Shown one piece after another: positions 1,315 to 14,006 of a stretch of 64,000 nt of DNA. The notes beneath the pieces were generated by a model. That model was given only the letters and a program-made list of their open reading frames with translations, did no database searches and had not been told where the DNA came from. The position numbers were made by a program, and so were the translations under genes. Origin of the DNA: Saccharofermentans sp. (lineage in GTDB: Bacteria > Bacillota > Clostridia > Saccharofermentanales > Saccharofermentanaceae); contig JAIKVV010000018.1 of the NCBI GenBank assembly GCA_024685385.1, forward strand, positions 12,422 through 76,421. Direction: 5' to 3'. Position 1 is the first letter of the stretch; each line of letters opens with the position of its first letter.

Positions 1315-2367
1315 TCAGACTGCCTTAACGTCCGGGTGATCTCCCCTGCCGGTAACTGCCTGATAGCCGATGGACTTAAGCCTTGCAGAGATGCATCTTG
1401 AACAAAGGGCGGCATCATCGGATATGCAGATCTTGCCGTCATATAACTGATACTTGCCGCGGTTTTCAACAGGTGAAAGATTGGGCATGATGACATTTGC
1501 ACCGGCCAGGATGCCTTTCTCCCGGCCTGATGCTTCAGCTGTTCCGAGAGCAGTTGTGGCAGGAAGCAGGACTTTAGGCAGCATGAGCCTTATCAGCGAC
1601 AATAATCTTAATGTCAGGGCTACATCTCCTGCAGGGCAGTCCGCAAAAGGAGTGTTCGCAGCAGGAAGGAAAGGGCCTATACCGATCATGTGAGGCTCGA
1701 ATCCTTTCATGAACATAAGGTCTTCCACTATATGGTCAAGTGTCTGTCCGGGTGTTCCCACCATGATCCCGCATCCGACCTGATAGCCGATTTCTTTCAG
1801 ATCATGAAGACACCTGATCCTGCTTGCCCATGACATCTTATCCGGATGGAGCAGGCCGTAGTGATCTTCATTGTATGTCTCGTGGCGCAGAAGATACCTG
1901 TCCGCACCGGCATCAAAATATGCTTTATATTCTTCACGGCTCTTCTCACCTATAGATAAAGTCACCGCGCAGTCGGGATGGCGCTCCTTGATCTTTGAGA
2001 CTATATAACAGATGTCTTCAGTTGAATATGTAAGATCTTCGCCGCTCTGCAGGACAAAAGTGCGGAATCCTATGTCATATCCCGAATCGGCACATCTTAT
2101 GATCTCATCAGCTGTCATGCGGTAGCGCTCACAATGCTTGTTTGATGCGCGGATGCCGCAATAATAGCAGTCGTTCTTACAATAATTGGAAAACTCGATT
2201 ATGCCGCGGATATAGACATCTTTGCCGAAAATGCTTTGAGCAACTTCCCTGGCTTTTTCCGCAAGGTATTCATCACAATACGCTGACGAGAGTATCTCCT
2301 TAAATTCATCAGCGGAAAGTGCCGTCGTCTCATAGAGTTTATCTATCAGCTTTTCGATATTCTCCAT
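1315..2367 (-). CDS. hydE: [FeFe]-hydrogenase H-cluster radical SAM maturase HydE
   Basis: 350 aa. The radical SAM motif CKNDCYYCG sits in the HydE-typical context IIEFSNYCxxxCxYCGIRxxN...RYRM. The gene starts 1 nt after the hydF stop. Confidence 0.85.
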   Translation of the reverse strand: MENIEKLIDKLYETTALSADEFKEILSSAYCDEYLAEKAREVAQSIFGKDVYIRGIIEFSNYCKNDCYYCGIRASNKHCERYRMTADEIIRCADSGYDIGFRTFVLQSGEDLTYSTEDICYIVSKIKERHPDCAVTLSIGEKSREEYKAYFDAGADRYLLRHETYNEDHYGLLHPDKMSWASRIRCLHDLKEIGYQVGCGIMVGTPGQTLDHIVEDLMFMKGFEPHMIGIGPFLPAANTPFADCPAGDVALTLRLLSLIRLMLPKVLLPATTALGTAEASGREKGILAGANVIMPNLSPVENRGKYQLYDGKICISDDAALCSRCISARLKSIGYQAVTGRGDHPDVKAV

Positions 2368-2368
2368 A

Positions 2369-3571
2369 TCATTCTCCGATCATCTCATAAAGATCAGGAA
2401 ACACCTTGATGCTCCTCTTTAATATCCCGTTCATATAAGCGATCGCAAGACCGTAGTTCGTGACAGGGCATCCCAGTGCCTTGGCTGTCTTGATCCTGCT
2501 CTTCATCTCACGGTCGTTGAGCATGCAGCCGCCGCAGTGAAGAACGAGTCTATAGGGGCTGAGGTCATCCGCAAAGGAAATGCCGGACGTTGTATCAAAG
2601 CTGATCTCTTTTCCCGTATATCTTCTGATCAGATTGGGAAGTTTTACGGTCCCAATGTCTTCACATTGTCTGTGATGACTGCAGCCTTCTGAAATAAGGA
2701 TTTTATCTCCGTCCTCTATCGAATCTAATGCTTTAAGGCCCTCAACGCAATCAGCAAGGATTCCCTTATGTCTTGCCATCAATATCGAAAAAGACGTCAA
2801 GAGGATATCATCCGGAACGATTTCCGAGACCCTCTTAAATGCCTGACTGTCCGTTATCACGAGCGCAGGCTTCTCCTTGAGCGACTTTATTGCTGCATCA
2901 AGCCCTTCGGGCTGAACGCAAAGGGTCGCGATATTGTATTCCAGAGCTTCCCTTATCACCTGCTGCTGAGGCAATATGAGCCTTCCCTTTGGAGCAGATG
3001 AATCGATGGGTATTACCAGTATGACTGTATCGCCCGCCCTGACCAGGTCAGAGATAAGAGGGCTTTCTTCAGGAATATCTTTTGCAAGGGATGCTATCTT
3101 TTCTTTAAGTTCATTGATGTTCGTCCCGTTAAGTGCGCTGACCGTTATGGAGTCAGAAGAAGCAGACTCAAATCCCTTTAGATCGGACTTGTTATAAGCG
3201 ATCACATAGGGAATGTCCCTTTCCTTAAAAAGCGATAACAATTCCTTATCGGTATTTCTCAAGCCTTCCGTTGAATCCACGACAAGAACGGCAACATCGA
3301 CTTTACGCAATATCTCACGGGTCCTTGCAACTCGCAGTTCCCCCAAAGATCCCGTGTCGTCGAATCCGGGAGTATCGATGATGACAACCGGGCCCATGGG
3401 CAGAAGTTCCATTGCCTTGCTGACAGGATCTGTGGTAGTGCCCTTGACATCGGACACAACGGCGAGCTGCTGGCCGGTAACAGCATTGACAAGACTTGAC
3501 TTCCCGCTGTTGCGGGCCCCGAAGAATCCTATATGGATCCTTTCTCCTGAAGGTACATCATTAAGGCTCAT
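2369..3571 (-). CDS. hydF: [FeFe]-hydrogenase H-cluster maturation GTPase HydF
   Basis: 400 aa. GTPase motifs GARNSGKSS (G1), DTPG (G3) and NKSD (G4). C-terminal Fe-S motif EGCSHH...LHCGGC. 4-nt overlap with the upstream gene. Confidence 0.85.
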   Translation of the reverse strand: MSLNDVPSGERIHIGFFGARNSGKSSLVNAVTGQQLAVVSDVKGTTTDPVSKAMELLPMGPVVIIDTPGFDDTGSLGELRVARTREILRKVDVAVLVVDSTEGLRNTDKELLSLFKERDIPYVIAYNKSDLKGFESASSDSITVSALNGTNINELKEKIASLAKDIPEESPLISDLVRAGDTVILVIPIDSSAPKGRLILPQQQVIREALEYNIATLCVQPEGLDAAIKSLKEKPALVITDSQAFKRVSEIVPDDILLTSFSILMARHKGILADCVEGLKALDSIEDGDKILISEGCSHHRQCEDIGTVKLPNLIRRYTGKEISFDTTSGISFADDLSPYRLVLHCGGCMLNDREMKSRIKTAKALGCPVTNYGLAIAYMNGILKRSIKVFPDLYEMIGE

Positions 3572-4728
3572 AACAAACCCTCCTTTATTGGATCGAATCC
3601 CGTAATATCCGGTATCTTCTTAAGATAAAGACGCCCGGACATTGCAAGATGCGGTAATTCGATAAACTTTATGTTCTCGGGACAGACATGCTTATATAAG
3701 GGGTCTGCGATCACGGTTTTTGCATCTTTAAAGGCTTCAATGAAATCATCTTCCCTATGACAATAAAGATCATTTCCGGAAGGAGCAAGAAGCGAACTGT
3801 CGCATACAGATACAACCCGGACATCAATATCGTTTCTTTTCTTTATCCCTGCCGCGATCGAGGATGCAGTTACAATTTCTCCCGCGATAATTCTATCTGT
3901 CCCGTTGCGATTGATCTCCTCATATGAAATACAAGGTTTTGATGTTTTAAAAGCATTCCTCAGTTCCCTGAAAACCGTATCAGCAAAACCTGCCGCAGGG
4001 AATCCTGCAACATAAGGGATACCGAAACTCTCATAAAGATACTTTGCGCAGGCGAGGCCCGTTGAGGAAATAACGAGATTTACATCAGTTGAAACAAGAT
4101 TGCCGCTGACCGCACCTTCTGACAGATCTCCCATGGCAAGTGAATACAAGACCTCAAAGCCGTTTGATTCCAGCATAGATACGACGGAAGCGATCGTCTC
4201 GGGATTTGCAAAGTCCAAAGGGGTTGCGCCGATGATGCCGGCTCTTATCTTCCCTGTTTTATTTGTCGTTTTCTTATCGATTCCCGAAGTCATTTGACGC
4301 ACATATGCTTCAAATGCTTTCGAAGCTCCGGATGCATAATCTCCCGTCGCGTTAGTTGACACATAAAAGCAAGGGATCCCGGTCCTTCCTGTGATCACTT
4401 TGGCAATGCCTTCAAAATCGGTACCGTTAAGAAATGGTATCGGAGAATTTGCCAAGGCGATAAATCTTGGAGATAAAGCATCAGCGGCATCAAGGATCGC
4501 ATTGATGAAGCGGTCGTCATTACCTGTTATGGCATCCATGTCATTAAGACCTGAAATATATATCAGACTGTCTTCATTGTACCAGCGGGTCTCATCGTGA
4601 GTGTTATATGTTGAATTACAGCCTGACGGATCATGGATCACGGTCATTCCGCCGAGTTCATAGAGAGCAGAAGCAGCGCCTGAAACGTCTCCTGTCAGGA
4701 CAGGCAGGATCCTGAATGTATTTCTCAT
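3568..4728 (-). CDS. Nitrogenase component-1-type oxidoreductase, NifK/NifN/BchB-like small partner (pair 2)
   Basis: I moved the start to ATG 4728 (MRNTF...), which gives an ATGA overlap with the upstream stop. Clear paralog of the 10843-11859 product, sharing SGAxxxLY, VIxDxxGC, DExRW, SGLxDMDAIxGxD and GxPCxxVSxN. The GC motif resembles the NifK/NifN HGxxGC motif. Confidence 0.7.
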   Translation of the reverse strand: MRNTFRILPVLTGDVSGAASALYELGGMTVIHDPSGCNSTYNTHDETRWYNEDSLIYISGLNDMDAITGNDDRFINAILDAADALSPRFIALANSPIPFLNGTDFEGIAKVITGRTGIPCFYVSTNATGDYASGASKAFEAYVRQMTSGIDKKTTNKTGKIRAGIIGATPLDFANPETIASVVSMLESNGFEVLYSLAMGDLSEGAVSGNLVSTDVNLVISSTGLACAKYLYESFGIPYVAGFPAAGFADTVFRELRNAFKTSKPCISYEEINRNGTDRIIAGEIVTASSIAAGIKKRNDIDVRVVSVCDSSLLAPSGNDLYCHREDDFIEAFKDAKTVIADPLYKHVCPENIKFIELPHLAMSGRLYLKKIPDITGFDPIKEGLL

Positions 4729-6023
4729 ATGCAGCTTACACACCCCAAACCCTTTCTCGGAACGATATCTTCCGTGTCGGATTCATTATCGTATGCATCC
4801 TTTATAAGTTCCGATAATCTTATCAATCCTTTGTATCCGTAAAGACCTTTAGCCTCGATAATATTTACGAAATGCTTCGTTCCGCAAAACCATGCAGCCT
4901 TCTGTCCGATCGCAAGATAATCACCGTCCAAACGTTCGGAAACCCTGCATCCCGGAGCGATCGTGGCTTCGATCAGAAGATCAGGATATTTTTCTTTCAA
5001 CAGTCCGAAAGCAGGCTCTTCTTCCAAAGAAACTGAATCAGCATATACTTTCTTTACGTTGATTCCGTGTTCAAGCAAGAGATAAGCAAGGCCGAAAGGT
5101 CTCGGATGCGCAGTATAATCGATCGCCACAGGCTTATCCTGAATATATGCTCTCAATTCATCAAGCGCATTATCAAGTCCGGTCTTGAGATCTGTCATAT
5201 CCGGCAATTCAATTCCAAGAGAAACTGCAAGCCTTCTCTCCCCTTCTTCTATCTCTTCTGGCAGCACAGCGAAAGGAAGATAGAGATAAGGTATGGAACA
5301 TCTCTCAGAAAATGACTTGACTCCGAGATCTCCGGTCGGATAGTTGCAGATATTTAAAGAAGCATTTCCAAGTTCCATATATTCTTCGAAAGTCTTCGTA
5401 TCGAAGATCTCCCGGGTCTCATATCCGGCCTTGTGTATCAGATCAAATATCTCTGAATCCTTAAACAAAGGCATATCAGAGCCTAAAATATTTACGGTCT
5501 TCTCATGCCGTTCTGAAGACGGAACAACTTCAAGCATCGCACGGCGCAAGGTCTGTTCAGGCGTTATATGAAGTTTTTGCATGATCGGATCCATGAAAGC
5601 CCTGATGAAAGTAACCCCGGGAAATTCCTTCTCAAGATTGGAATATACATATTCAAGATCGCAGTTTAAGAAGTGGTGAACGCATACCGGGAATACTATG
5701 ACAGCCGGAGGCAGTTCATCGAACTTCAAAAGGAGTTCCCTGATCCCCTCAAGAGTAACAGCCGTTATGTCTTCGGATACCATCTCATGTTCTTCCAGGA
5801 CAACTCCCGAAATGCGGTCCAGCATGTCCATTTCCGCAGCCGTCATTATTACGCCGCGCATGCAGTTATCGGCACAGATATAGACCTGGTGCGACCCGGG
5901 AAGTTGCATTCCGATATGCACGATGTTCCAGGTCCCGTGCACTGGCGCGTTGAATTCAAGTCCTGCCTTGAAAGGCGCAGGGAAACTTGCATCTTTTATC
6001 TTAACTGCTATGGTCTTATCCAT
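4725..6023 (-). CDS. Nitrogenase component-1-type oxidoreductase, NifD/NifE/BchN-like large partner (pair 2)
   Basis: 432 aa. Paralog of the 11856-13148 product: YICADNC aligns with VAPGCCG, and PPAVIVFPVCVHHFLNCD aligns with [18 protein letters not shown]. The protein ends ...RKGLGCVSCI. Confidence 0.65.
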   Translation of the reverse strand: MDKTIAVKIKDASFPAPFKAGLEFNAPVHGTWNIVHIGMQLPGSHQVYICADNCMRGVIMTAAEMDMLDRISGVVLEEHEMVSEDITAVTLEGIRELLLKFDELPPAVIVFPVCVHHFLNCDLEYVYSNLEKEFPGVTFIRAFMDPIMQKLHITPEQTLRRAMLEVVPSSERHEKTVNILGSDMPLFKDSEIFDLIHKAGYETREIFDTKTFEEYMELGNASLNICNYPTGDLGVKSFSERCSIPYLYLPFAVLPEEIEEGERRLAVSLGIELPDMTDLKTGLDNALDELRAYIQDKPVAIDYTAHPRPFGLAYLLLEHGINVKKVYADSVSLEEEPAFGLLKEKYPDLLIEATIAPGCRVSERLDGDYLAIGQKAAWFCGTKHFVNIIEAKGLYGYKGLIRLSELIKDAYDNESDTEDIVPRKGLGCVSCI

Positions 6024-6027
6024 CTTC

Positions 6028-6279
6028 TCAACCTACGACGTTTGAATATGTTGTCTTTACCGTTACACCTTCAAGACATCCGATCCTGCCGGACACTTCA
6101 CTCGTTATGTCCTGAGGCGCATCGATCGCGACCGTGATGATGCTTATATTTTTCGCGTGATAAGGAATACCCATTCTTCCGATTACGAAAGGAGCTGCTT
6201 CATGAAGGAGCTCGTTGATCTTTTCGACGGAATTCATGTCAGATACGATTATTGTAATAACGGCTACTCTTGTTTCCAT
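6028..6279 (-). CDS. TM1266-family putative iron-only hydrogenase system regulator (small ACT/NikR-C-like protein)
   Basis: 83 aa: METRVAVITIIVSD...GRMGIPYHAKNISIITVAIDAPQDITSEVSGRIGCLEGVTVKTTYS. This matches my recollection of the TM1266 family that sits beside hydE/hydG in Thermotoga. Confidence 0.6.
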   Translation of the reverse strand: METRVAVITIIVSDMNSVEKINELLHEAAPFVIGRMGIPYHAKNISIITVAIDAPQDITSEVSGRIGCLEGVTVKTTYSNVVG

Positions 6280-6293
6280 ACTTTCCTCCTTAA

Positions 6294-7298
6294 TCAGCAG
6301 ATCCTCGGCAGAAGTTCCTTTCCCGGAGGGGGCAGGAATGTCATGCCGCCGATGGATGTCTTCATGACTACTTTGCCTTTGTGATCGTCCGTAACCCTGC
6401 CGATTATCTTAGCGCCGGCAGTTTCTTCATAAGCGCTCAAGATCTCTATTGCCTTGTCTTCAAATTCAGAAGGCACGATGATCACAAGACGCCCCTCACA
6501 GGCAAGGTACAAAGGTTCAAGACCCAGAAGGCCTGTTACGCCGCGTACGGCAGGGTCCACCGGGATATCATCTGAAACGATCTCGATCCCCACATCAGAT
6601 GCATCGCAGATCTCATAAAGCACGGTTCCGACTCCGCCTCTCGTGGCATCTCTTATGACGTGAGTTTCAGGGATCTTTGAAACCACGGCAAGAGCGGGAT
6701 CTGCCAAAGGAGCGCAGTCAGATGTTACATCTGCTTCGATCCCGTACTCATCCCTTGCAAGCAGGATCGCACAGCCGTGTCTTCCGACGTCTCCCGTCAC
6801 GATAATCGAATCTCCGGGCTTTGCAAAAGCACCGGAAAGATTTACTTCATTTTCTATGACACCTACTCCTGCGGTCGTGATAAACAGGCCGTCCACCTGA
6901 CCTTTGCCTGCAACTTTCGTATCGCCTGCAACGATCTTGACGCCTGCCTTGCGGGCAGTCTCTCCCATGGCCTTAGCGATCTCTTCAAGGTCGGATACGG
7001 CAAAGCCTTCTTCGATTACATAGGAACATGTAAGATACAAAGGTCTTGCACCCATGCATGCGATGTCATTGACAGTGCCGCAGACCGAGAGTTTTCCGAT
7101 ATTGCCGCCGGGGAATTTCCAGGGAGATACGATGAATCCGTCTGTTGACATTGCGATCTTCCCTTCCGGGGCCGGCATTACGGCAGCATCGTCTGCGGTA
7201 AAATATTCATTATCGAGATTTTTCTTAAAGATACCGGCAATCAGTTCAGAAGTCTTATGTCCGCCTGAACCGTGGCTTAAAGTTATCTTATCTTCCAT
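6294..7298 (-). CDS. hypE: Hydrogenase maturation protein HypE (carbamoyl dehydratase)
   Basis: 334 aa with an AIR-synthase-like fold. Motif GGNIGKLSVCGTVNDIACMGA and the diagnostic C-terminal PRIC. Confidence 0.9.
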   Translation of the reverse strand: MEDKITLSHGSGGHKTSELIAGIFKKNLDNEYFTADDAAVMPAPEGKIAMSTDGFIVSPWKFPGGNIGKLSVCGTVNDIACMGARPLYLTCSYVIEEGFAVSDLEEIAKAMGETARKAGVKIVAGDTKVAGKGQVDGLFITTAGVGVIENEVNLSGAFAKPGDSIIVTGDVGRHGCAILLARDEYGIEADVTSDCAPLADPALAVVSKIPETHVIRDATRGGVGTVLYEICDASDVGIEIVSDDIPVDPAVRGVTGLLGLEPLYLACEGRLVIIVPSEFEDKAIEILSAYEETAGAKIIGRVTDDHKGKVVMKTSIGGMTFLPPPGKELLPRIC

Positions 7299-8337
7299 TA
7301 TCGATCAGTCCTCCATACAAGTAATATGCCGAGCAGGCACCCTCATCCGAGACCATGCAGGCGCCGACCGGATGGTCGGGAATGCAGGCTTTGCCGAACA
7401 TGGGGCATTCGAACGGCTTGATCTTTCCTTGCAGGACTTCACCGCACCTGCAGGGAGTCTTATATTCTTCCTTCATGTCGGGAATGGCAAACTTGACGCG
7501 CGCATCGAACTCACTGAATTCATCGCGGAGTTTCATGCCAGACATAGGGATCACACCGATTCCGCGCCAAAGCGCATCACAAGGCTCCATAAATTCATTA
7601 ACCAGTCTCATTGCGGCAGGAGCTCCTTCTTCCCTTACTACTCTGGGGTAGCAGTTTACAAGGAAAGGCTCTCCCTCCTGACATTTCTTAACCGCAACTG
7701 CAAGCGCTGTCAGAAGTTCAGGACCCGTAAAACCTGCAATGACGCCGCTCGTGCCTTTGGCGAGCATGGCTTTGCAGTCAGCTGTTCCCGTTATTGCATG
7801 AACATGCCCGGGATAAAGATAGCAGTCAGTGGAATCAGCCAGGACTTCATAGGCTCTGGGCATCGTCTTGTTAGCCGTCAATATCGAAAAGTTCTTTATC
7901 CCCTTTTCTTTTGCATATTTGACTGCGATAACATCTGATGGGGTCGTTGTTTCAAAACCTACAGACAGGAACACAACCTCCCTGTCTGGATTCTTCTCGG
8001 CGAAAAGAACGGCATCCTGAGGCGAATATACAACATTGATCTGTGCTCCCTGCCCGCGTTCTTTGATCATGGAAGACTTGATGCCGGGCACTTTTACAAG
8101 ATCGCCGAATGTCGTGATGACACATTCTTTTTCTCTTGCAAGCCAGCATGCCTCATCGATATAGTCCGCTGACGTAACGCACACAGGACATCCCGGGCCC
8201 GATATCAGTTCGATGTCATCAGATAACAGCTGTCTGATTCCGAGCTTGAATATCTCATGCGTATGGGTGCCGCATACTTCCATGATACGGATCTTGGGAC
8301 CCTTATAACTTTTAAGTACCGTTGCCGCTTCGTTCAT
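7288..8337 (-). CDS. hypD: Hydrogenase maturation protein HypD
   Basis: 349 aa. Motifs CGTHTHE (CGxHxH), GPGCPVC and GFETT, plus the C-terminal CRCGEV...CPMFGKAC cysteines. Confidence 0.9.
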   Translation of the reverse strand: MNEAATVLKSYKGPKIRIMEVCGTHTHEIFKLGIRQLLSDDIELISGPGCPVCVTSADYIDEACWLAREKECVITTFGDLVKVPGIKSSMIKERGQGAQINVVYSPQDAVLFAEKNPDREVVFLSVGFETTTPSDVIAVKYAKEKGIKNFSILTANKTMPRAYEVLADSTDCYLYPGHVHAITGTADCKAMLAKGTSGVIAGFTGPELLTALAVAVKKCQEGEPFLVNCYPRVVREEGAPAAMRLVNEFMEPCDALWRGIGVIPMSGMKLRDEFSEFDARVKFAIPDMKEEYKTPCRCGEVLQGKIKPFECPMFGKACIPDHPVGACMVSDEGACSAYYLYGGLIDNGR

Positions 8338-8546
8338 GACAGATACTCCTTCGCCAAAGTCTCTGATTCCGTAATGTCATCAGCCGTGATCCTTGCTATG
8401 GCAGCACCTGCATGGACCATAACGAACTCACCGGGTTCCAGGTCATCAAGGAGCGCTGCGGAAACTTCACGTCTTGCTCCGGATGAATCGACCAGGGCAA
8501 CATCACCCTTGACGCTTACTACTTTTGCAGATAATCCTACACACAT
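8334..8546 (-). CDS. hypC: Hydrogenase maturation chaperone HypC/HupF family
   Basis: 70 aa. N-terminal MCVG with the essential Cys2. 4-nt overlap with hypD. Confidence 0.85.
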   Translation of the reverse strand: MCVGLSAKVVSVKGDVALVDSSGARREVSAALLDDLEPGEFVMVHAGAAIARITADDITESETLAKEYLS

Positions 8547-8551
8547 ATTAT

Positions 8552-10846
8552 TTATCCTCCGATCTTTGATAACTTATTCATTCCATACAGGGCCTGTCCC
8601 AGAGCAACGCCGCCGTCATTAGGCGGAACTACAGAATGGATCAGGACTTTTTTGCCTTCTTTTTCGAGTCTCTTTTTAACTTCTGTCAGCAGAAGCTTAT
8701 TCTGGAAGCATCCGCCGCTTAAAGCAAATGTATCTATATCCCCTGCAGCATCCAGCGCGCATCTTGCCGCACCTTCGGCAAGCATTAAATGGAAGGTCAT
8801 GGCGAGTTTATCAGGATCTTCACCTTTGATCCTTTCATCAGTTATAAATCTTACGATCTCATCTGTTGCAACGATCTTTCTTCCGGATCCCGATCTTACA
8901 TATTCAATGTCAGGGATCACCGGTTCATTGATATTCCTTTCTGCGGCGAACTGCAGTTCCATTGCAGCATGTCCTTCAAATGTGGATGTCTTCCTGATCC
9001 CGAGGATGGCCGATACTGCATCGAAGAGCCTTCCCGTTGATGTCGACTTGACCGTATTGATCTTCTTTTCGATCATCTTGCTGATCGCCCTGAAAGCATT
9101 CAGATCACAAAGATCGAGCACTCTAATGACATCTTCGCTTCCATCTTTATAGATCGACCCTATCATCGAAAGAGCGATCCGGTAACCTTCACGTGAAGCG
9201 AGGTCACCTCCGCAGTGATCGAAAGGAGCGATGGATCCCGCTCTTTCAAACCCGTCGAGGCTGCATCTTAATATCTCGCCGCCCCAGATCGTGTCATCCT
9301 CACCGAAGCCCGTGCCGTCCAAAGCAATACCCATGACTTCGTCCGTATAGTCGTTCTCCGCCATGCAGGACAATATATGCGCATAATGGTGCTGAACCCT
9401 GATTATCTTTCTGCCGGATTCTTCCGCAAGAAGCGATGAGACATATCTTGGGTGAAGATCGCAGACGGCATATTCAGGATCCGTCTCGAGAAGTTTGTTC
9501 ATCTTGATAACTGACGACTTCAAGACTTCTGAAGACCTCATATCTTCCATGTCTCCGATGTAAGATGACGGATAGAAGAGATTGTCATGCGCTATGCAGA
9601 ATGTATTTTTTAGATCTGCTCCGTATGCGACAAGCTCACCTTTAAATTCTTTGCTCAGCATCATGGGCAGCGGAGCATATCCCCGGGAACGTCTGATCAT
9701 ATAGAGTTTCCCGTCGAGCGTATCCGTGACCGAATCATCGGTCCTGATATTGATGTCCCTGTCGTGGGATAGTATAAGATCACAAAATCCCGACAGCATG
9801 GAGAATGCTTCTTCATCCGTCGATGCTATGGGAGCGCCCGAGACATTGCCCGATGTCATAATGAGAACGGGACTTACCAATGTGTCATCCTTATAATCAA
9901 AGATCAAACAATGCAAAGGAGCATAAGGCAGCATAACGCCTATAGTGGGATTGCCGGGAGCAACCTTTTCGGACAGGAAAGGTACTCCTTCCCCCTCTTT
10001 CTTATCAAGAAGGACTATGGGCTTGTTATGGCCCGTAAGGATCTCTTCTTTGAAAGGATCCGTCTTGCAGTATCTTCTTACCGTATCGATATCTTTCATC
10101 ATCACGGCAAAAGGCTTATGGGGTCTTGATTTAAGCTGTCTTAATCTTTCGACGGCAGCATCGTTTGCCGCATCACAGCAAAGGTGGAATCCTCCTATGC
10201 CCTTTACAGCGATAACCTTGCCAAGAGCGACTGCTGATCTAGCCGTTCTTATGGCTTCCTCACCTTTAATGTCAGTTCCGGCGATGTAAACAGAAGGTCC
10301 GCAGTCATTGCAGCAGACCGGCTGGGCATCGTATCTTCTGGATGAAGGATCATAATATTCTTTCTCGCATACGGAGCACATGGGGAATTTCCTCATCGAT
10401 GTCCTGGGTCTGTCGTAAGGCAAAGAATCCAGGATCGTAAGGCGGGGACCGCAGGATGTGCAGTTAATGAAAGGATGGAGATACCTTCTGTCATTCTTGT
10501 CATAAAGTTCGGAAAGACATTCATCGCAAATTGCAATATCGGGAGATACGAAGATCTCTCCTTCAACCTTGCTGCTCTCTATGATCTCGAAAGTCTTATA
10601 TTTCTCATCAGGATCTTTTTCCTTGATATCCATCTTTAATACAGCGGAACGCTTGGGCGGCTCGTACTTTATCTTATCGATGAATTTTTTAACATCATCT
10701 TCTTCCCCCTGCGCCAAAATCTCAACGAAAGGTCCTTTGTTGCATACATATCCCGTGACAGCGCATGCTGATGCGTGTCTTGCAACGGTAGGTCTCATGC
10801 CTACTCCCTGGACTATGCCGTAAACCTTGATCCTGACGCTCTTCAT
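8552..10846 (-). CDS. hypF: Carbamoyltransferase HypF
   Basis: 764 aa. Acylphosphatase N-domain (VQGVGMRP), two CxxC-x18-CxxC zinc fingers (CDEC...CTSC and CSVC...CNDC), then YrdC-like and Kae1-like halves. Confidence 0.92.
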   Translation of the reverse strand: MKSVRIKVYGIVQGVGMRPTVARHASACAVTGYVCNKGPFVEILAQGEEDDVKKFIDKIKYEPPKRSAVLKMDIKEKDPDEKYKTFEIIESSKVEGEIFVSPDIAICDECLSELYDKNDRRYLHPFINCTSCGPRLTILDSLPYDRPRTSMRKFPMCSVCEKEYYDPSSRRYDAQPVCCNDCGPSVYIAGTDIKGEEAIRTARSAVALGKVIAVKGIGGFHLCCDAANDAAVERLRQLKSRPHKPFAVMMKDIDTVRRYCKTDPFKEEILTGHNKPIVLLDKKEGEGVPFLSEKVAPGNPTIGVMLPYAPLHCLIFDYKDDTLVSPVLIMTSGNVSGAPIASTDEEAFSMLSGFCDLILSHDRDINIRTDDSVTDTLDGKLYMIRRSRGYAPLPMMLSKEFKGELVAYGADLKNTFCIAHDNLFYPSSYIGDMEDMRSSEVLKSSVIKMNKLLETDPEYAVCDLHPRYVSSLLAEESGRKIIRVQHHYAHILSCMAENDYTDEVMGIALDGTGFGEDDTIWGGEILRCSLDGFERAGSIAPFDHCGGDLASREGYRIALSMIGSIYKDGSEDVIRVLDLCDLNAFRAISKMIEKKINTVKSTSTGRLFDAVSAILGIRKTSTFEGHAAMELQFAAERNINEPVIPDIEYVRSGSGRKIVATDEIVRFITDERIKGEDPDKLAMTFHLMLAEGAARCALDAAGDIDTFALSGGCFQNKLLLTEVKKRLEKEGKKVLIHSVVPPNDGGVALGQALYGMNKLSKIGG

Positions 10847-11859
10847 GAATCGTCACCCGCAGAAGATACCGCATAGTGCGGAAGGATCATGACTCTGCCT
10901 TTATAATCGGGGATCAAAGGCAGATAAGTTGCATCACAAACGAGGTTATCAAAACCGCCATTCATTACAAGATGTGTAAATTCATCTTCTTCCGTGAGGA
11001 TGAGATCTCCTTCCTGCTTGAGCTCATCATGAAGAGTAAAAAATGTTGCGGCAGTAACGTCTGATCCGGACTTATTCCTTATCGAATATCCCGCGACTTC
11101 ATCATGGACGACCAATGTCCTGCCTTCCGGTATAACAAGATCAAAGACTGCAGGATCTTCGATCTTATATTCTGTTCCAAACCTGCTGTTTAATTTCTTC
11201 ACGATGTCAATGCCGCATGATGAAACTGCGACATTAAGGATGTTGGACGATGCATCCATAACATCTTCCAAAGAAGCGCCGCAGCCGTACATACGGACAT
11301 TCCCGTAGCCTTGTTTCTTATAATATTCAAAGACCTTGTCGCGAGAAGACCTTCCCATATCAAGGGGAAGCGCGCCGAATATTCCGACTGTATTTTCATC
11401 GGATGGTCTTTCATCCTTTGCAAACTTTTCGAAAAGCCTCACATATGCATCAGATGCACCCCTGTCATAGAGACGCATGCCGTTTGAGGAAACAGCGACA
11501 CAAGGCTTCCCTGTCTTGCGTTCGATCATGTATGTGAGAGCATTATAGTCAGTAGCTATTACGGCCGGAACGGGAGTTCCTACGAGAGCCGTAAACTTAT
11601 ATTCTCCCGCCTCATGGGCTTTGACTATCTTCTTTACGAGAAGCTCATCTCTTCCCAGGATCGCATCCATGTCGCGGAGACCCGCAGAGAATATGCCGGC
11701 AGCAGTATCCTGCCATCTGGGCTCATCAAATCCGCATATGTTGCCGGTGCAGCCGCCTGCATCGATTATCACTATCAGAGCAGCGGAATCGTAAAGAACT
11801 CCGACGGCTCCGGACTGGTCAGGTGCAAATGGCGTCAATACTTTACGAAGACCTTTCAT
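10843..11859 (-). CDS. Nitrogenase component-1-type oxidoreductase, NifK/NifN/BchB-like small partner (pair 1)
   Basis: 338 aa. Motifs DAGGCTGNICGFDEPRW, SAGLRDMDAILGRD and GKPCVAVSSNG. Paralog of the 3568-4728 product. 4-nt overlaps at both ends. Confidence 0.7.
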   Translation of the reverse strand: MKGLRKVLTPFAPDQSGAVGVLYDSAALIVIIDAGGCTGNICGFDEPRWQDTAAGIFSAGLRDMDAILGRDELLVKKIVKAHEAGEYKFTALVGTPVPAVIATDYNALTYMIERKTGKPCVAVSSNGMRLYDRGASDAYVRLFEKFAKDERPSDENTVGIFGALPLDMGRSSRDKVFEYYKKQGYGNVRMYGCGASLEDVMDASSNILNVAVSSCGIDIVKKLNSRFGTEYKIEDPAVFDLVIPEGRTLVVHDEVAGYSIRNKSGSDVTAATFFTLHDELKQEGDLILTEEDEFTHLVMNGGFDNLVCDATYLPLIPDYKGRVMILPHYAVSSAGDDS

Positions 11860-13148
11860 GACAAAGCCTCCTCTATCGCATCGATGAGCTTGACTATTCC
11901 CTTGTAGCCATAAGGCTGAACATCCGAATTCCAGGGGATGTTCGGAACATCGGGACAGTAGTATGCGGCATCCTTGCCGAGAGTCAGATCAGGGGCATCT
12001 TCTGATGCCGAATAATTGATCATGGAAGGATCAAGATTACAAAAGAGCATAGTATCAGGAGATAACTCAGCCAGTTTCTTAACATAGACAAAGTAATCCG
12101 GAGAGAGAGTCGCATAGATCTCACCGACCTTCATACCGTATCTGGTGAGCGTCAGCGCAAGTTCAAAAGGATTGGCGTTGATGCATTCACCGATATTTAC
12201 TTTCCTGCCTTTGTATTTCTCCATGAAAGCCCTGATCTTATCTTCCGCCTCATCATAGAAGACCGTATCATCCATCCCGGTTCCCAGGATCTGTCCCAAA
12301 GCCTTATACTGCTTTGCAACCTGATCTATCCCGTAGACTCTTGTAAGCCCCGCATAAGGGATCTTCAAGTTGTTATACATGTCTTCTGCCGCAGGATTTG
12401 CTTCGTTATTGAGGACCAGGTTAAGATTTGCCTGACTCATCTTAAGAAATTCATCGTAACTATTACAAGTTCCGATCTGTCTTATATCATCAAATCCGAT
12501 GCTCTTTAAGAGTTCAAACATCTCGCAGTCAGGATCTACGGGAGCAAAGAAACCAAGGAGATTTATTGCATTCCCTTTCCTTACTGAGGGGGCAAGCAGA
12601 GAATATATCTGCTGCCTTACATCCACCATCGGAGGTCTCCTGCCTTCACGCGTTAATGCATACATATAGCAGGGCGCGACACGGACGCCTTCCACAAGTT
12701 CTTCGCACCTTGCGCAGACTCTTTTCATATCCGTCCCCAACAGCGCATCAACACAGGTTATGCATATCATTACGGCCCTGGGCCTTACTTCGCAGAATTC
12801 CACTATCTCCTTAACTGCCTCAGGGATCTTCTTAAGATGCCTTGAAGTAACAAGATCCGTTTCGTCCATCATCAGATAGAAGAACCTGCCGTTATACTCG
12901 GGATTTTTCGTTACATATCTGGTATTTCTTCCGCAGCAGCCGGGAGCCACTATCAGCATGACGGATTCGGGCACTGCAAGTCCTGCCCTCTTAACGCCGA
13001 ATCCTTCCGCGCCCGGGGAGTTATATGCAAGCGTTGCAGGCGAACTATAGACAAGGCCCTCATTTCCCTTCAACCCGGAAGGGATATTGTCCTTGCCCAA
13101 AGATGCTATATAGCCCGCTTTATAACTTACTGCTCCTGCCATTATCAC
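11856..13148 (-). CDS. Nitrogenase component-1-type oxidoreductase, NifD/NifE/BchN-like large partner (pair 1)
   Basis: 430 aa. VAPGCCGRN, and [13 protein letters not shown] which resembles the NifD/NifE CxxxxIGDD region. 4-nt overlap with the NifH-like gene stop. Confidence 0.65.
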
Positions 13149-13897
13149 CCTTCTCCTTTAAGGAGGTCTTCCGCAAGTTTCTTAAAGCAAAGGGAAGCTT
13201 CGCAATCAGGGGCACCTTCGATTACGGTCATGCCCTGATCTTCACAGATATTGATATCATCGCTTCTCGGGATCCTGCCTACGACCGGAACATTATGTTC
13301 CTCTGCAAAGGCCTCGACTTTCCGGTCCTCATCGGGGATATTCCTGTGGTTTAAGACAAGTCCTTCCACCCTTGCATAACTTCTCTCTTCAAAATTCTTT
13401 ACCGCCGTGATTATGTTGTTGGCTGCATAAAGGGCCATCTTCTCGCCCGATGTAACTATAAGGACCTTCTCGGCATAGCCCTGTCTTATGGGAGCCGCAA
13501 AACCGCCGCATACGACATCGCCCAGAACATCGTAGAGAACCACATCCGGCTTTACTTTATCGAAAAGAGCAAGCTCATCGATGAGATCGAAAGTCGCGAT
13601 TATGCCTCTGCCGGCACAGCCCAGGCCCGGTGTGGGGCCCCCGGTCTCGATGCATACGACTCCGCTGAATCCGACACGGGAAATATCTTCGTATGTATCT
13701 ATGTCAGCTTCGTCGCGGAGCATATCGATAACGGGCTTGACAGTATTGCCTCCCAAAAGGTTCGTAGTAGAGTCGGCTTTGGGGTCGCACCCTATCTGCA
13801 CGACTTTCTTCCCCATGGAAGCAAAAGCCGCGGCAAGATTTGCTGTTACGGTGGATTTACCGATCCCGCCTTTACCGTATATCGCAAGTTTGAGCAT
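13145..13897 (-). CDS. NifH/BchL/CfbC-family ATPase (nitrogenase iron protein-like reductase component)
   Basis: I moved the start to ATG 13897 ([16 protein letters not shown]), with an AAGGAG RBS 7 nt upstream. P-loop GKGGIGKS and switch I CDPKADST are present. Both [4Fe-4S] cysteines are present, in GCAGRG and DVVCGGF. Confidence 0.85.
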
Positions 13898-14006
13898 AAA
13901 AAATCTCCTTGATCCGCGCACGGCAAGGAGAATCCGTCTTAACAGGATATATCTGTCATTGACTATTCCCGCTCGGATGATTCCTTGCCGTCAGAGTCTG
14001 ATTGTT
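13898..14006 (-). promoter_or_regulatory. Structured 5' leader of the 12-gene operon with competing anti-SD pairings
   Basis: In the RNA sense, ACGGCAAGGAAUC (13991-13979) pairs with GAUUCUCCUUGCCGU (13935-13921) as 9 bp, a 2-nt bulge, then 4 bp. The same UCUCCUUG can instead pair with the SD region CAAGGAGA (13912-13905). Confidence 0.4.

Follow-up and report, generated by a model that had tools for sequence, protein, structure and literature searches.

In a 64,000-nucleotide stretch of the Saccharofermentans sp. genome assembly GCA_024685385.1 (contig JAIKVV010000018.1, positions 12,422 to 76,421; hereafter the window), the [FeFe]-hydrogenase maturation genes hydF and hydE are the last two genes of a twelve-gene operon that likely takes the place of HydG, the third protein of the canonical maturation set. 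In that set, HydG, a radical S-adenosylmethionine tyrosine lyase with a C-terminal cluster domain, makes an Fe(CO)2(CN)-cysteine unit, HydE processes this unit, and the 2Fe subcluster of the active site, the H-cluster, is then put together and delivered by HydF. Textbook accounts present HydE, HydF, and HydG as both universal and sufficient for H-cluster synthesis. The ten genes upstream of hydF encode, in this order, a NifH-like protein, a first NifD/K-like pair, HypF, HypC, HypD, HypE, a TM1266-family protein, and a second NifD/K-like pair (NifD2 and NifK2). Going by gene content and distribution, we consider it likely that these ten genes, a module of nitrogenase-like and Hyp proteins, substitute for HydG upstream of a normal HydE and HydF that serve a single hydrogenase, HydA, and the operon probably makes the carbon monoxide (CO)- and cyanide-bearing iron of the H-cluster by an undescribed route.

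The genome to which the window belongs (2.37 Mb in 113 contigs, 95% complete, 2% contamination) encodes its sole [FeFe]-hydrogenase, HydA, on another contig (G000:C48:57191-58999, locus L002; PF02906, 324 bits), with intact H-cluster motifs MPCTAKKFE (the MPC motif) and EIMGCPGGC (ExMxCxxGC). The first motif of this HydA reads TSCSPGW instead of the TSCCP of group A, with a serine at the position of the proton-relay cysteine; we take the TSCSP type to be that of group B. Two ferredoxin-type CxxCxxCxxxC motifs are also intact. hydF and hydE are each present in a single copy, and no HydG- or ThiH-like gene was found either in the window, as the preliminary description of this DNA had already reported, or elsewhere in the assembly: the HydG profile TIGR03955 matched only hydE (85 bits), and a tblastn search of the assembly with a real HydG returned hydE as its sole match (28% identity). 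The Hyp proteins likewise lack their usual partners in this genome, where no match to PF00374 or PF00346, which mark the [NiFe]-hydrogenase large subunit, was detected and neither HypA nor HypB scored above its cut-off (best 22.8 and 22.3 bits against 28.9 and 121, respectively). Two seemingly incomplete maturation sets, HydE and HydF without HydG and HypFCDE without a [NiFe] client, are thus combined in one operon. Since a single draft in 113 contigs with 95% completeness is insufficient to prove the absence of HydG, it is the comparative counts that settle the matter.

We sampled carriers of the operon through the NifK2-like protein, whose relatives occur in at least 586 species genomes, and examined the best 80, all of them gut or rumen Clostridia, including Saccharofermentans-like metagenome-assembled genomes (MAGs), Blautia, Dorea, Coprococcus comes, Faecalicatena, and Pseudoramibacter. 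HydG above the TIGR03955 cut-off was found in none of these 80 operon-carrying genomes (79 plus the window's own). The weaker matches to the HydG model in carriers (170–210 bits, about 410 amino acids (aa)) correspond to ThiH, with 526 bits on the ThiH model, and since the same profile finds true HydG at 470–960 bits, its sensitivity is not limiting. HydA is present in 47 of 50 operon genomes and HydF in 49 of 50, always as one copy, and a [NiFe]-type large subunit was encountered in only one of 51, as an Ech-like frame of 361 aa (G040). In one carrier (G041), a 3.3-Mb scaffold holds hydA, hydF, and the operon together, and HydG is absent.

The background frequency of HydG was obtained from two unbiased samples, one of 300 genomes of the class, each at least 90% complete, and the other of 151 Lachnospiraceae genomes; HydG occurs in 191 of the former (64%) and in 47% of the latter. 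Among the 202 HydF-positive genomes of the class sample, 189 have HydG, 8 the operon, 5 neither, and none both; the corresponding figures for the 87 HydF-positive Lachnospiraceae are 69, 16, 2, and, again, none with both. The same either/or pattern is seen within the window's own genus, in which five genomes have the operon without HydG and two have HydG without the operon, one of the latter (G195) with the canonical cluster TM1266-hydE-hydG-hydF. The preliminary description had offered two ways out of the missing hydG, namely that the gene is encoded elsewhere or that the HypFCDE module supplies the iron with its cyanide and CO ligands. The first is rejected by the absence of HydG from this genome and from all 80 carriers, and the second gains support from the mutually exclusive distribution and from the lack of a [NiFe]-hydrogenase that the Hyp proteins could serve.

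Some genomes of the two samples deviated at first sight. Five low-scoring class genomes that seemed to combine the operon with HydG, or to have the operon without Hyd proteins (G173, G231, G286, G266, and G316), really contain a different NifHDK-like trio (25–37% identity) and were set aside because this trio has no Hyp or Hyd neighbors. Of six Lachnospiraceae genomes in which HydF seemed to be accompanied by neither HydG nor the operon, four do carry the marker gene, either just below the 1e-100 threshold or as split matches.

HydF and HydE themselves have the features of ordinary, unaltered maturases. Their coupling to each other and to the NifK/N-like gene is as tight as had been described: with its ATG at 3571-3569, hydF overlaps the PF00148 gene upstream, whose TGA lies at 3570-3568, by 4 nt (ATGA), and the hydF TGA, ending at 2369, is separated from the hydE ATG, beginning at 2367, by the single base 2368. 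The HydF match covers positions 2–391 of the 392 of TIGR03918, and the Pfam GTPase (PF01926), HydF_dimer, and HydF_tetramer (PF18128 and PF18133) domains are all matched. Its P-loop (G18, G23-K24-S25), the GTPase residues D66-T67-x-G69 and N127-K128-x-D130, and the cluster motif C297-x-H299…H345-C346-G-x-C349 are either invariant or conserved to at least 95%. In HydE, the three cysteines of the CX3CX2C motif (C63, C67, and C70) are conserved, and residues 17–335 align with the solved HydE of Thermotoga maritima (E value 9e-88). When 54 operon-type HydF sequences were compared with 44 canonical ones, 82 positions, including the P-loop and the CxH…CGxC motif, were at least 95% conserved in both groups, and no column discriminated between them; for HydE (28 operon-type and 34 canonical sequences) there were 57 such positions, including CX3CX2C, and one weakly discriminating column.

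Phylogenetic trees were built for both proteins, with canonical members chosen by hydG adjoining hydF, hence not an unbiased sample. HydF from operon genomes is interleaved with canonical HydF, and at least four switches between the operon and HydG states are needed to account for the well-supported branches. A single clade of operon-type HydF is therefore rejected, and the link between the operon and the loss of HydG must have arisen repeatedly. The operon-linked HydE sequences, by contrast, form their own well-supported clade of 22, which crosses bacterial families and suggests that hydE spread together with the operon; the tree is compatible with a single origin for operon-type HydE. The preliminary description had proposed that its interpretation would fall if a canonical hydG-hydA locus lay elsewhere in the genome and these HydE and HydF were its only copies, nested among ordinary clostridial maturases. 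A hydA elsewhere and the sole copies are indeed found, but the hydG on which it hinged is missing. Its further suggestion that HydE plays a NifB-like part and HydF acts as a cluster carrier for the Nif-like scaffold finds no support, considering that both are sole copies, keep all their conserved residues, and co-occur with HydA. As sole copies they must serve HydA, and they most likely do their usual job downstream of the Nif-like proteins.

Some HydF matches in the Lachnospiraceae sample (in G356, G357, G411, G412, G426, G453, and G476) span only model positions 130–392, in frames of about 450 aa, which indicates that the N-terminal GTPase domain has diverged or been replaced; this occurs in HydG-bearing and operon-bearing genomes alike. 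In another genome (L181:5782-9705, G444:C7), HydF sits at the end of a stop-free frame of 1307 aa, in which Pfam matches nothing over the first 900 residues; this extension is probably spurious because long open reading frames on the opposite strand overlap it.

Comparative evidence strongly supports that this system is a variant of [FeFe]-hydrogenase maturation, and for the chemical steps of its upstream module and the order of hand-over we infer the following scheme. In known Hyp chemistry, HypF and HypE convert carbamoyl phosphate into cyanide, which is passed to iron on HypC-HypD. The same reactions would take place here, with the cyanide going to iron held by HypC-HypD, while the NifH-like ATPase would pass low-potential electrons to the two NifD/K-like pairs. 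The latter may supply or fix the carbonyls, for example by CO2 reduction, and could provide an Fe(CO)x(CN) unit with a scaffold of the NifEN type. HydE would then process this unit, and HydF would assemble the 2Fe subcluster and deliver it to HydA as usual. A more specific version, which we advance only tentatively, is that the ATP-driven nitrogenase-like reductase and HypCDEF together build Fe(CO)2(CN) with neither tyrosine nor HydG, for instance by reducing CO2 to iron-bound CO on the NifEN-like scaffold.

The replacement of HydG by the operon has to be weighed against other explanations of the same gene content. HydG might be present but missed, through an assembly gap, loss in binning, or a divergent form, with the operon unrelated to it. 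The draft state of the window's genome and the roughly 2–3% of HydF-positive genomes that show no HydG and have no operon either would allow for such losses, but they can hardly produce zero in 80 carriers, among them cultured isolates and the 3.3-Mb scaffold of G041, against backgrounds of 64% and 47%, nor would a profile that separates HydG from ThiH so widely be expected to fail; we give this explanation almost no credence. The ligands might instead be free CO and cyanide of the cell or the gut, captured by HydE and HydF without a dedicated supplier, with the operon doing something else. According to a passage of PMC9431212 that cites the experiment, HydF co-expressed with HydE alone activates HydA in vitro to about 1% of normal, and added CO or CN- doubled this activity. 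Such activation is far below the physiological level, and this explanation, very improbable in our view, accounts neither for hypFCDE without a [NiFe] client in one operon with TM1266, hydF, and hydE nor for the fact that the operon never co-occurs with HydG.

A stronger, though still unlikely, alternative is that the operon builds another iron-carbonyl/cyanide cofactor for one of its Nif-like pairs. In that case pair 1 would act as enzyme and pair 2 as NifEN-like scaffold, HydE and HydF would have been recruited as NifB analogue and carrier, and HydA maturation would be a side benefit or depend on another source of ligands. Two paralogous D/K-like pairs with a NifH-like protein do mirror the layout of NifDK, NifEN, and NifH; the D-like subunit of pair 1 has more conserved Cys/His positions (8) than that of pair 2; the HydE clade of 22 looks as if it travelled with the operon through several families; and Dos Santos et al. 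(2012, BMC Genomics 13:162, PMC3464626) left the choice between a catalytic and a biosynthetic role open. A stand-alone enzyme, however, would not predict the either/or pattern, that is, an operon restricted to genomes with HydA (47 of 50) and without HydG (all 80). HydE and HydF, without operon-specific residues, would have to serve HydA as well, and since this HydA still needs CO- and cyanide-bearing iron, a substitute for HydG would be required in any case.

Several observations weigh against the replacement of HydG by the operon. HydA was not detected in three of the 50 operon genomes, all of them draft assemblies. The genomes with HydF and neither HydG nor the operon (G106, G123, G177, G202, and G336 in the class sample; G404 and G498 in the Lachnospiraceae) reflect either the loss of HydG from drafts at about 2–3% or a third, HydG-independent route; HypD, sought in the five class genomes of this group, is missing from four of them. 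Comparison by tblastn of the hyd loci of the two HydG-bearing congeners (G195 and G295) with the window revealed no common flanking genes, so that replacement in place is unsupported. The sampled genomes are related, and their counts, not being independent trials, overstate independence. Nor does known Hyp chemistry account for the stoichiometry: HypCD builds Fe(CN)2(CO), but Fe(CO)2(CN) units are what the H-cluster requires, and therefore something new must happen. In favor of the replacement, on the other hand, stands Blautia luti, a carrier species (L079/G043) whose genome has two HydA, one HydF, and no HydG; it makes and consumes H2, its H2:methyl viologen oxidoreductase activity has been measured, and the only hydrogenases reported for it are hydABC and hydM (PMC12773636), but the strain assayed may differ from the genome that we searched.

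The twelve genes are listed in Table 1.

Table 1. Genes of the operon, from first to last, with their positions in the window and the matches that identify them.
Gene or product	Positions	Strand	Length and evidence
NifH-like ATPase/reductase	13145-13921	minus	258 aa; TIGR01287, 303 bits, under the cut-off of 394
NifD/E-like subunit, pair 1	11856-13148	minus	430 aa; PF00148, 106 bits; 8 conserved Cys/His positions
NifK/N-like subunit, pair 1	10843-11859	minus	338 aa; PF00148, 54 bits; C37 and C42 conserved
hypF	8552-10846	minus	764 aa; acylphosphatase, two zf-HYPF, Sua5/YrdC, and Kae1-like domains
hypC	8334-8546	minus	70 aa; N-terminus MCVGLS; VHAG histidine; homologues at 64 of 80 related loci
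hypD	7288-8337	minus	349 aa; PF01924, 427 bits; 15 Cys/His positions kept across 66 homologues
hypE	6294-7298	minus	334 aa; AIRS and AIRS_C domains
TM1266-family small protein, marker of [FeFe]-hydrogenase maturation clusters	6028-6279	minus	83 aa; TIGR03959, 100 bits; PF21699
NifD/E-like subunit, pair 2 (NifD2)	4725-6023	minus	432 aa; PF00148, 50 bits
NifK/N-like subunit, pair 2 (NifK2)	3568-4743	minus	391 aa; PF00148, 77 bits; alternative start at 4728 gives 386 aa
hydF, GTPase scaffold for H-cluster assembly	2369-3571	minus	400 aa; TIGR03918, 545 bits against a cut-off of 326
hydE, radical S-adenosylmethionine H-cluster maturase	1315-2367	minus	350 aa; TIGR03956, 540 bits against a cut-off of 255

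Related loci keep the order NifH-D1-K1-HypF-(C)-D-E-TM1266-(NifH2)-D2-K2, in which HypC and NifH2 are not always present; HypF, HypD, HypE, and NifD2 lie upstream at 51 of the 53 loci with enough upstream DNA, and hydF or hydE directly follows the NifK-like gene at 38 of 75. The NifH-like protein scores similarly on CfbC and TIGR01287 and conserves both cluster cysteines (C102 and C138). The NifD2-like protein has conserved C50, C54, C114, and H116, and its similarity to solved NifE or BchN is barely detectable (profile E value 0.004). For the NifK2-like protein, the only profile matches are remote ones to solved NifD, NifE, and BchB (E values 1e-14 to 1e-10), and it has one invariant cysteine, C42, within the motif HDPSGCNSTYNTHDE. 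Three cysteines on NifD2 and one on NifK2 make up the pattern expected for an interface [4Fe-4S] cluster. HypE ends in Cys334, the cyanation site, which is kept in all 67 homologues compared. These conserved residues (the NifH cysteines, the NifD2/NifK2 cysteine pattern, the GCxxC tail of NifD2 described below, and the C-terminal cysteine of HypE) fit a working system. None of the operon proteins comes near the cut-offs of the NifD, NifK, NifE, and NifN equivalog models (at best 58 bits against 505), and by these scores the Nif-like genes are not nitrogenase proper (NifHDK). A structure prediction for a complex of the NifD2-like and NifK2-like proteins with residues 268–400 of HydF scored 0.01 against a mark of 0.32, a value that speaks neither for nor against such a complex.

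Several members of the operon family show peculiarities of their own. At their C-terminus, the NifD2-like proteins carry a conserved RKG[LW]GCxxC[ILV] tail (window positions 4725-4745), with C428 present in 99% of 76 homologues, and this GCxxC tail could be a mobile metal-carrying arm. HypC begins with MCVGLS or MCVGLA at 55 of 64 loci and with MCVGLP at only 6; canonical HypC presumably has a proline after MCVGL, and the HypC chaperone of the operon family may be specialized. The window has a single NifH-like gene for both pairs, whereas many Lachnospiraceae loci (including L019, L028, L032, and L036) possess a second one between TM1266 and NifD2, about 50% identical to the first. In the NifK2 homologue of the MAG SUG1319 (L064:8634-9746), the STYNTHDE motif, elsewhere invariant, is interrupted by an in-frame stop, which reflects either a pseudogene or a sequencing error.

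The distribution of the operon defines a large bacterial group, with the marker gene in at least 586 species, that has [FeFe]-hydrogenases and consistently lacks HydG. Blautia, Dorea, and Coprococcus from the human gut belong to it, as do Saccharofermentans-like bacteria of the rumen, and in place of HydG its members have a hybrid set of assembly proteins, partly of the [NiFe] type and partly of the nitrogenase type. An annotation pipeline that reads hydrogenase capacity off the completeness of HydEFG would miscall these carriers. If the operon does replace HydG, it would represent a second route to iron-carbonyl-cyanide chemistry, give a function to the orphan hypFCDE genes and to a whole clade of nitrogenase-like proteins, offer new parts for heterologous hydrogenase production, and perhaps be relevant to the unsolved question of where CO comes from when hydrogenases mature anaerobically. 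Were the ATP-driven nitrogenase-like route also correct, the active site of [FeFe]-hydrogenases would have a second, independent biosynthetic origin, and the nitrogenase superfamily a new catalytic role, in abundant Clostridia of the human gut and the rumen.

When we searched the literature for a described route without HydG, or for a part of Nif-like proteins in assembling the H-cluster, the sole find was a remark on gene adjacency, with no link to the absence of HydG. In a single sentence, Dos Santos et al. (2012) pointed out that hydrogenase maturation proteins adjoin the NifHEN-like proteins of Coprococcus catus and other Firmicutes and that the latter may help to assemble the active-site cluster of a hydrogenase (PMC3464626). 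The gene family and its adjacency are evidently those of the operon described here, although that work mentions neither HydG nor its absence or the either/or pattern and names no client enzyme. With the canonical HydE/HydF/HydG system, often encoded as TM1266-hydE-hydG-hydF, the operon shares orthologous and unaltered TM1266, HydE, and HydF, the clustering of these genes, and the presence of HydA as client, but it has a NifH-like protein, two NifD/K-like pairs, and HypFCDE in the stead of HydG. Since HydG is absent from all 80 carriers and the window's genome has no ThiH/HydG paralogue, the ligands cannot come from tyrosine cleavage of the HydG type. With the HypCDEF assembly line of [NiFe]-hydrogenases, which makes Fe(CN)2(CO), it has in common all four proteins with their catalytic signatures (the C-terminal cysteine of HypE, the N-terminal cysteine of HypC, the Cys/His set of HypD, and the domains of HypF); it differs in the lack of a large subunit in 50 of 51 carriers and of HypA and HypB in the window's genome, and in the location of its hyp genes between nitrogenase-like genes. 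Finally, the operon resembles NifH with NifEN and the nitrogenase-like systems BchLNB/ChlLNB, CfbCD, and Mar in having a NifH-like ATPase with both cluster cysteines and genes for D/K-like heteromers with the cysteine pattern of an interface [4Fe-4S] cluster. The sequence similarity is very remote (E values of 1e-14 for the K-like subunit and 0.004 for the D-like one, with no NCBIfam equivalog cut-off reached), neither NifB nor tetrapyrrole genes accompany the operon, and the partners of its nitrogenase-like proteins are hydrogenase maturases.

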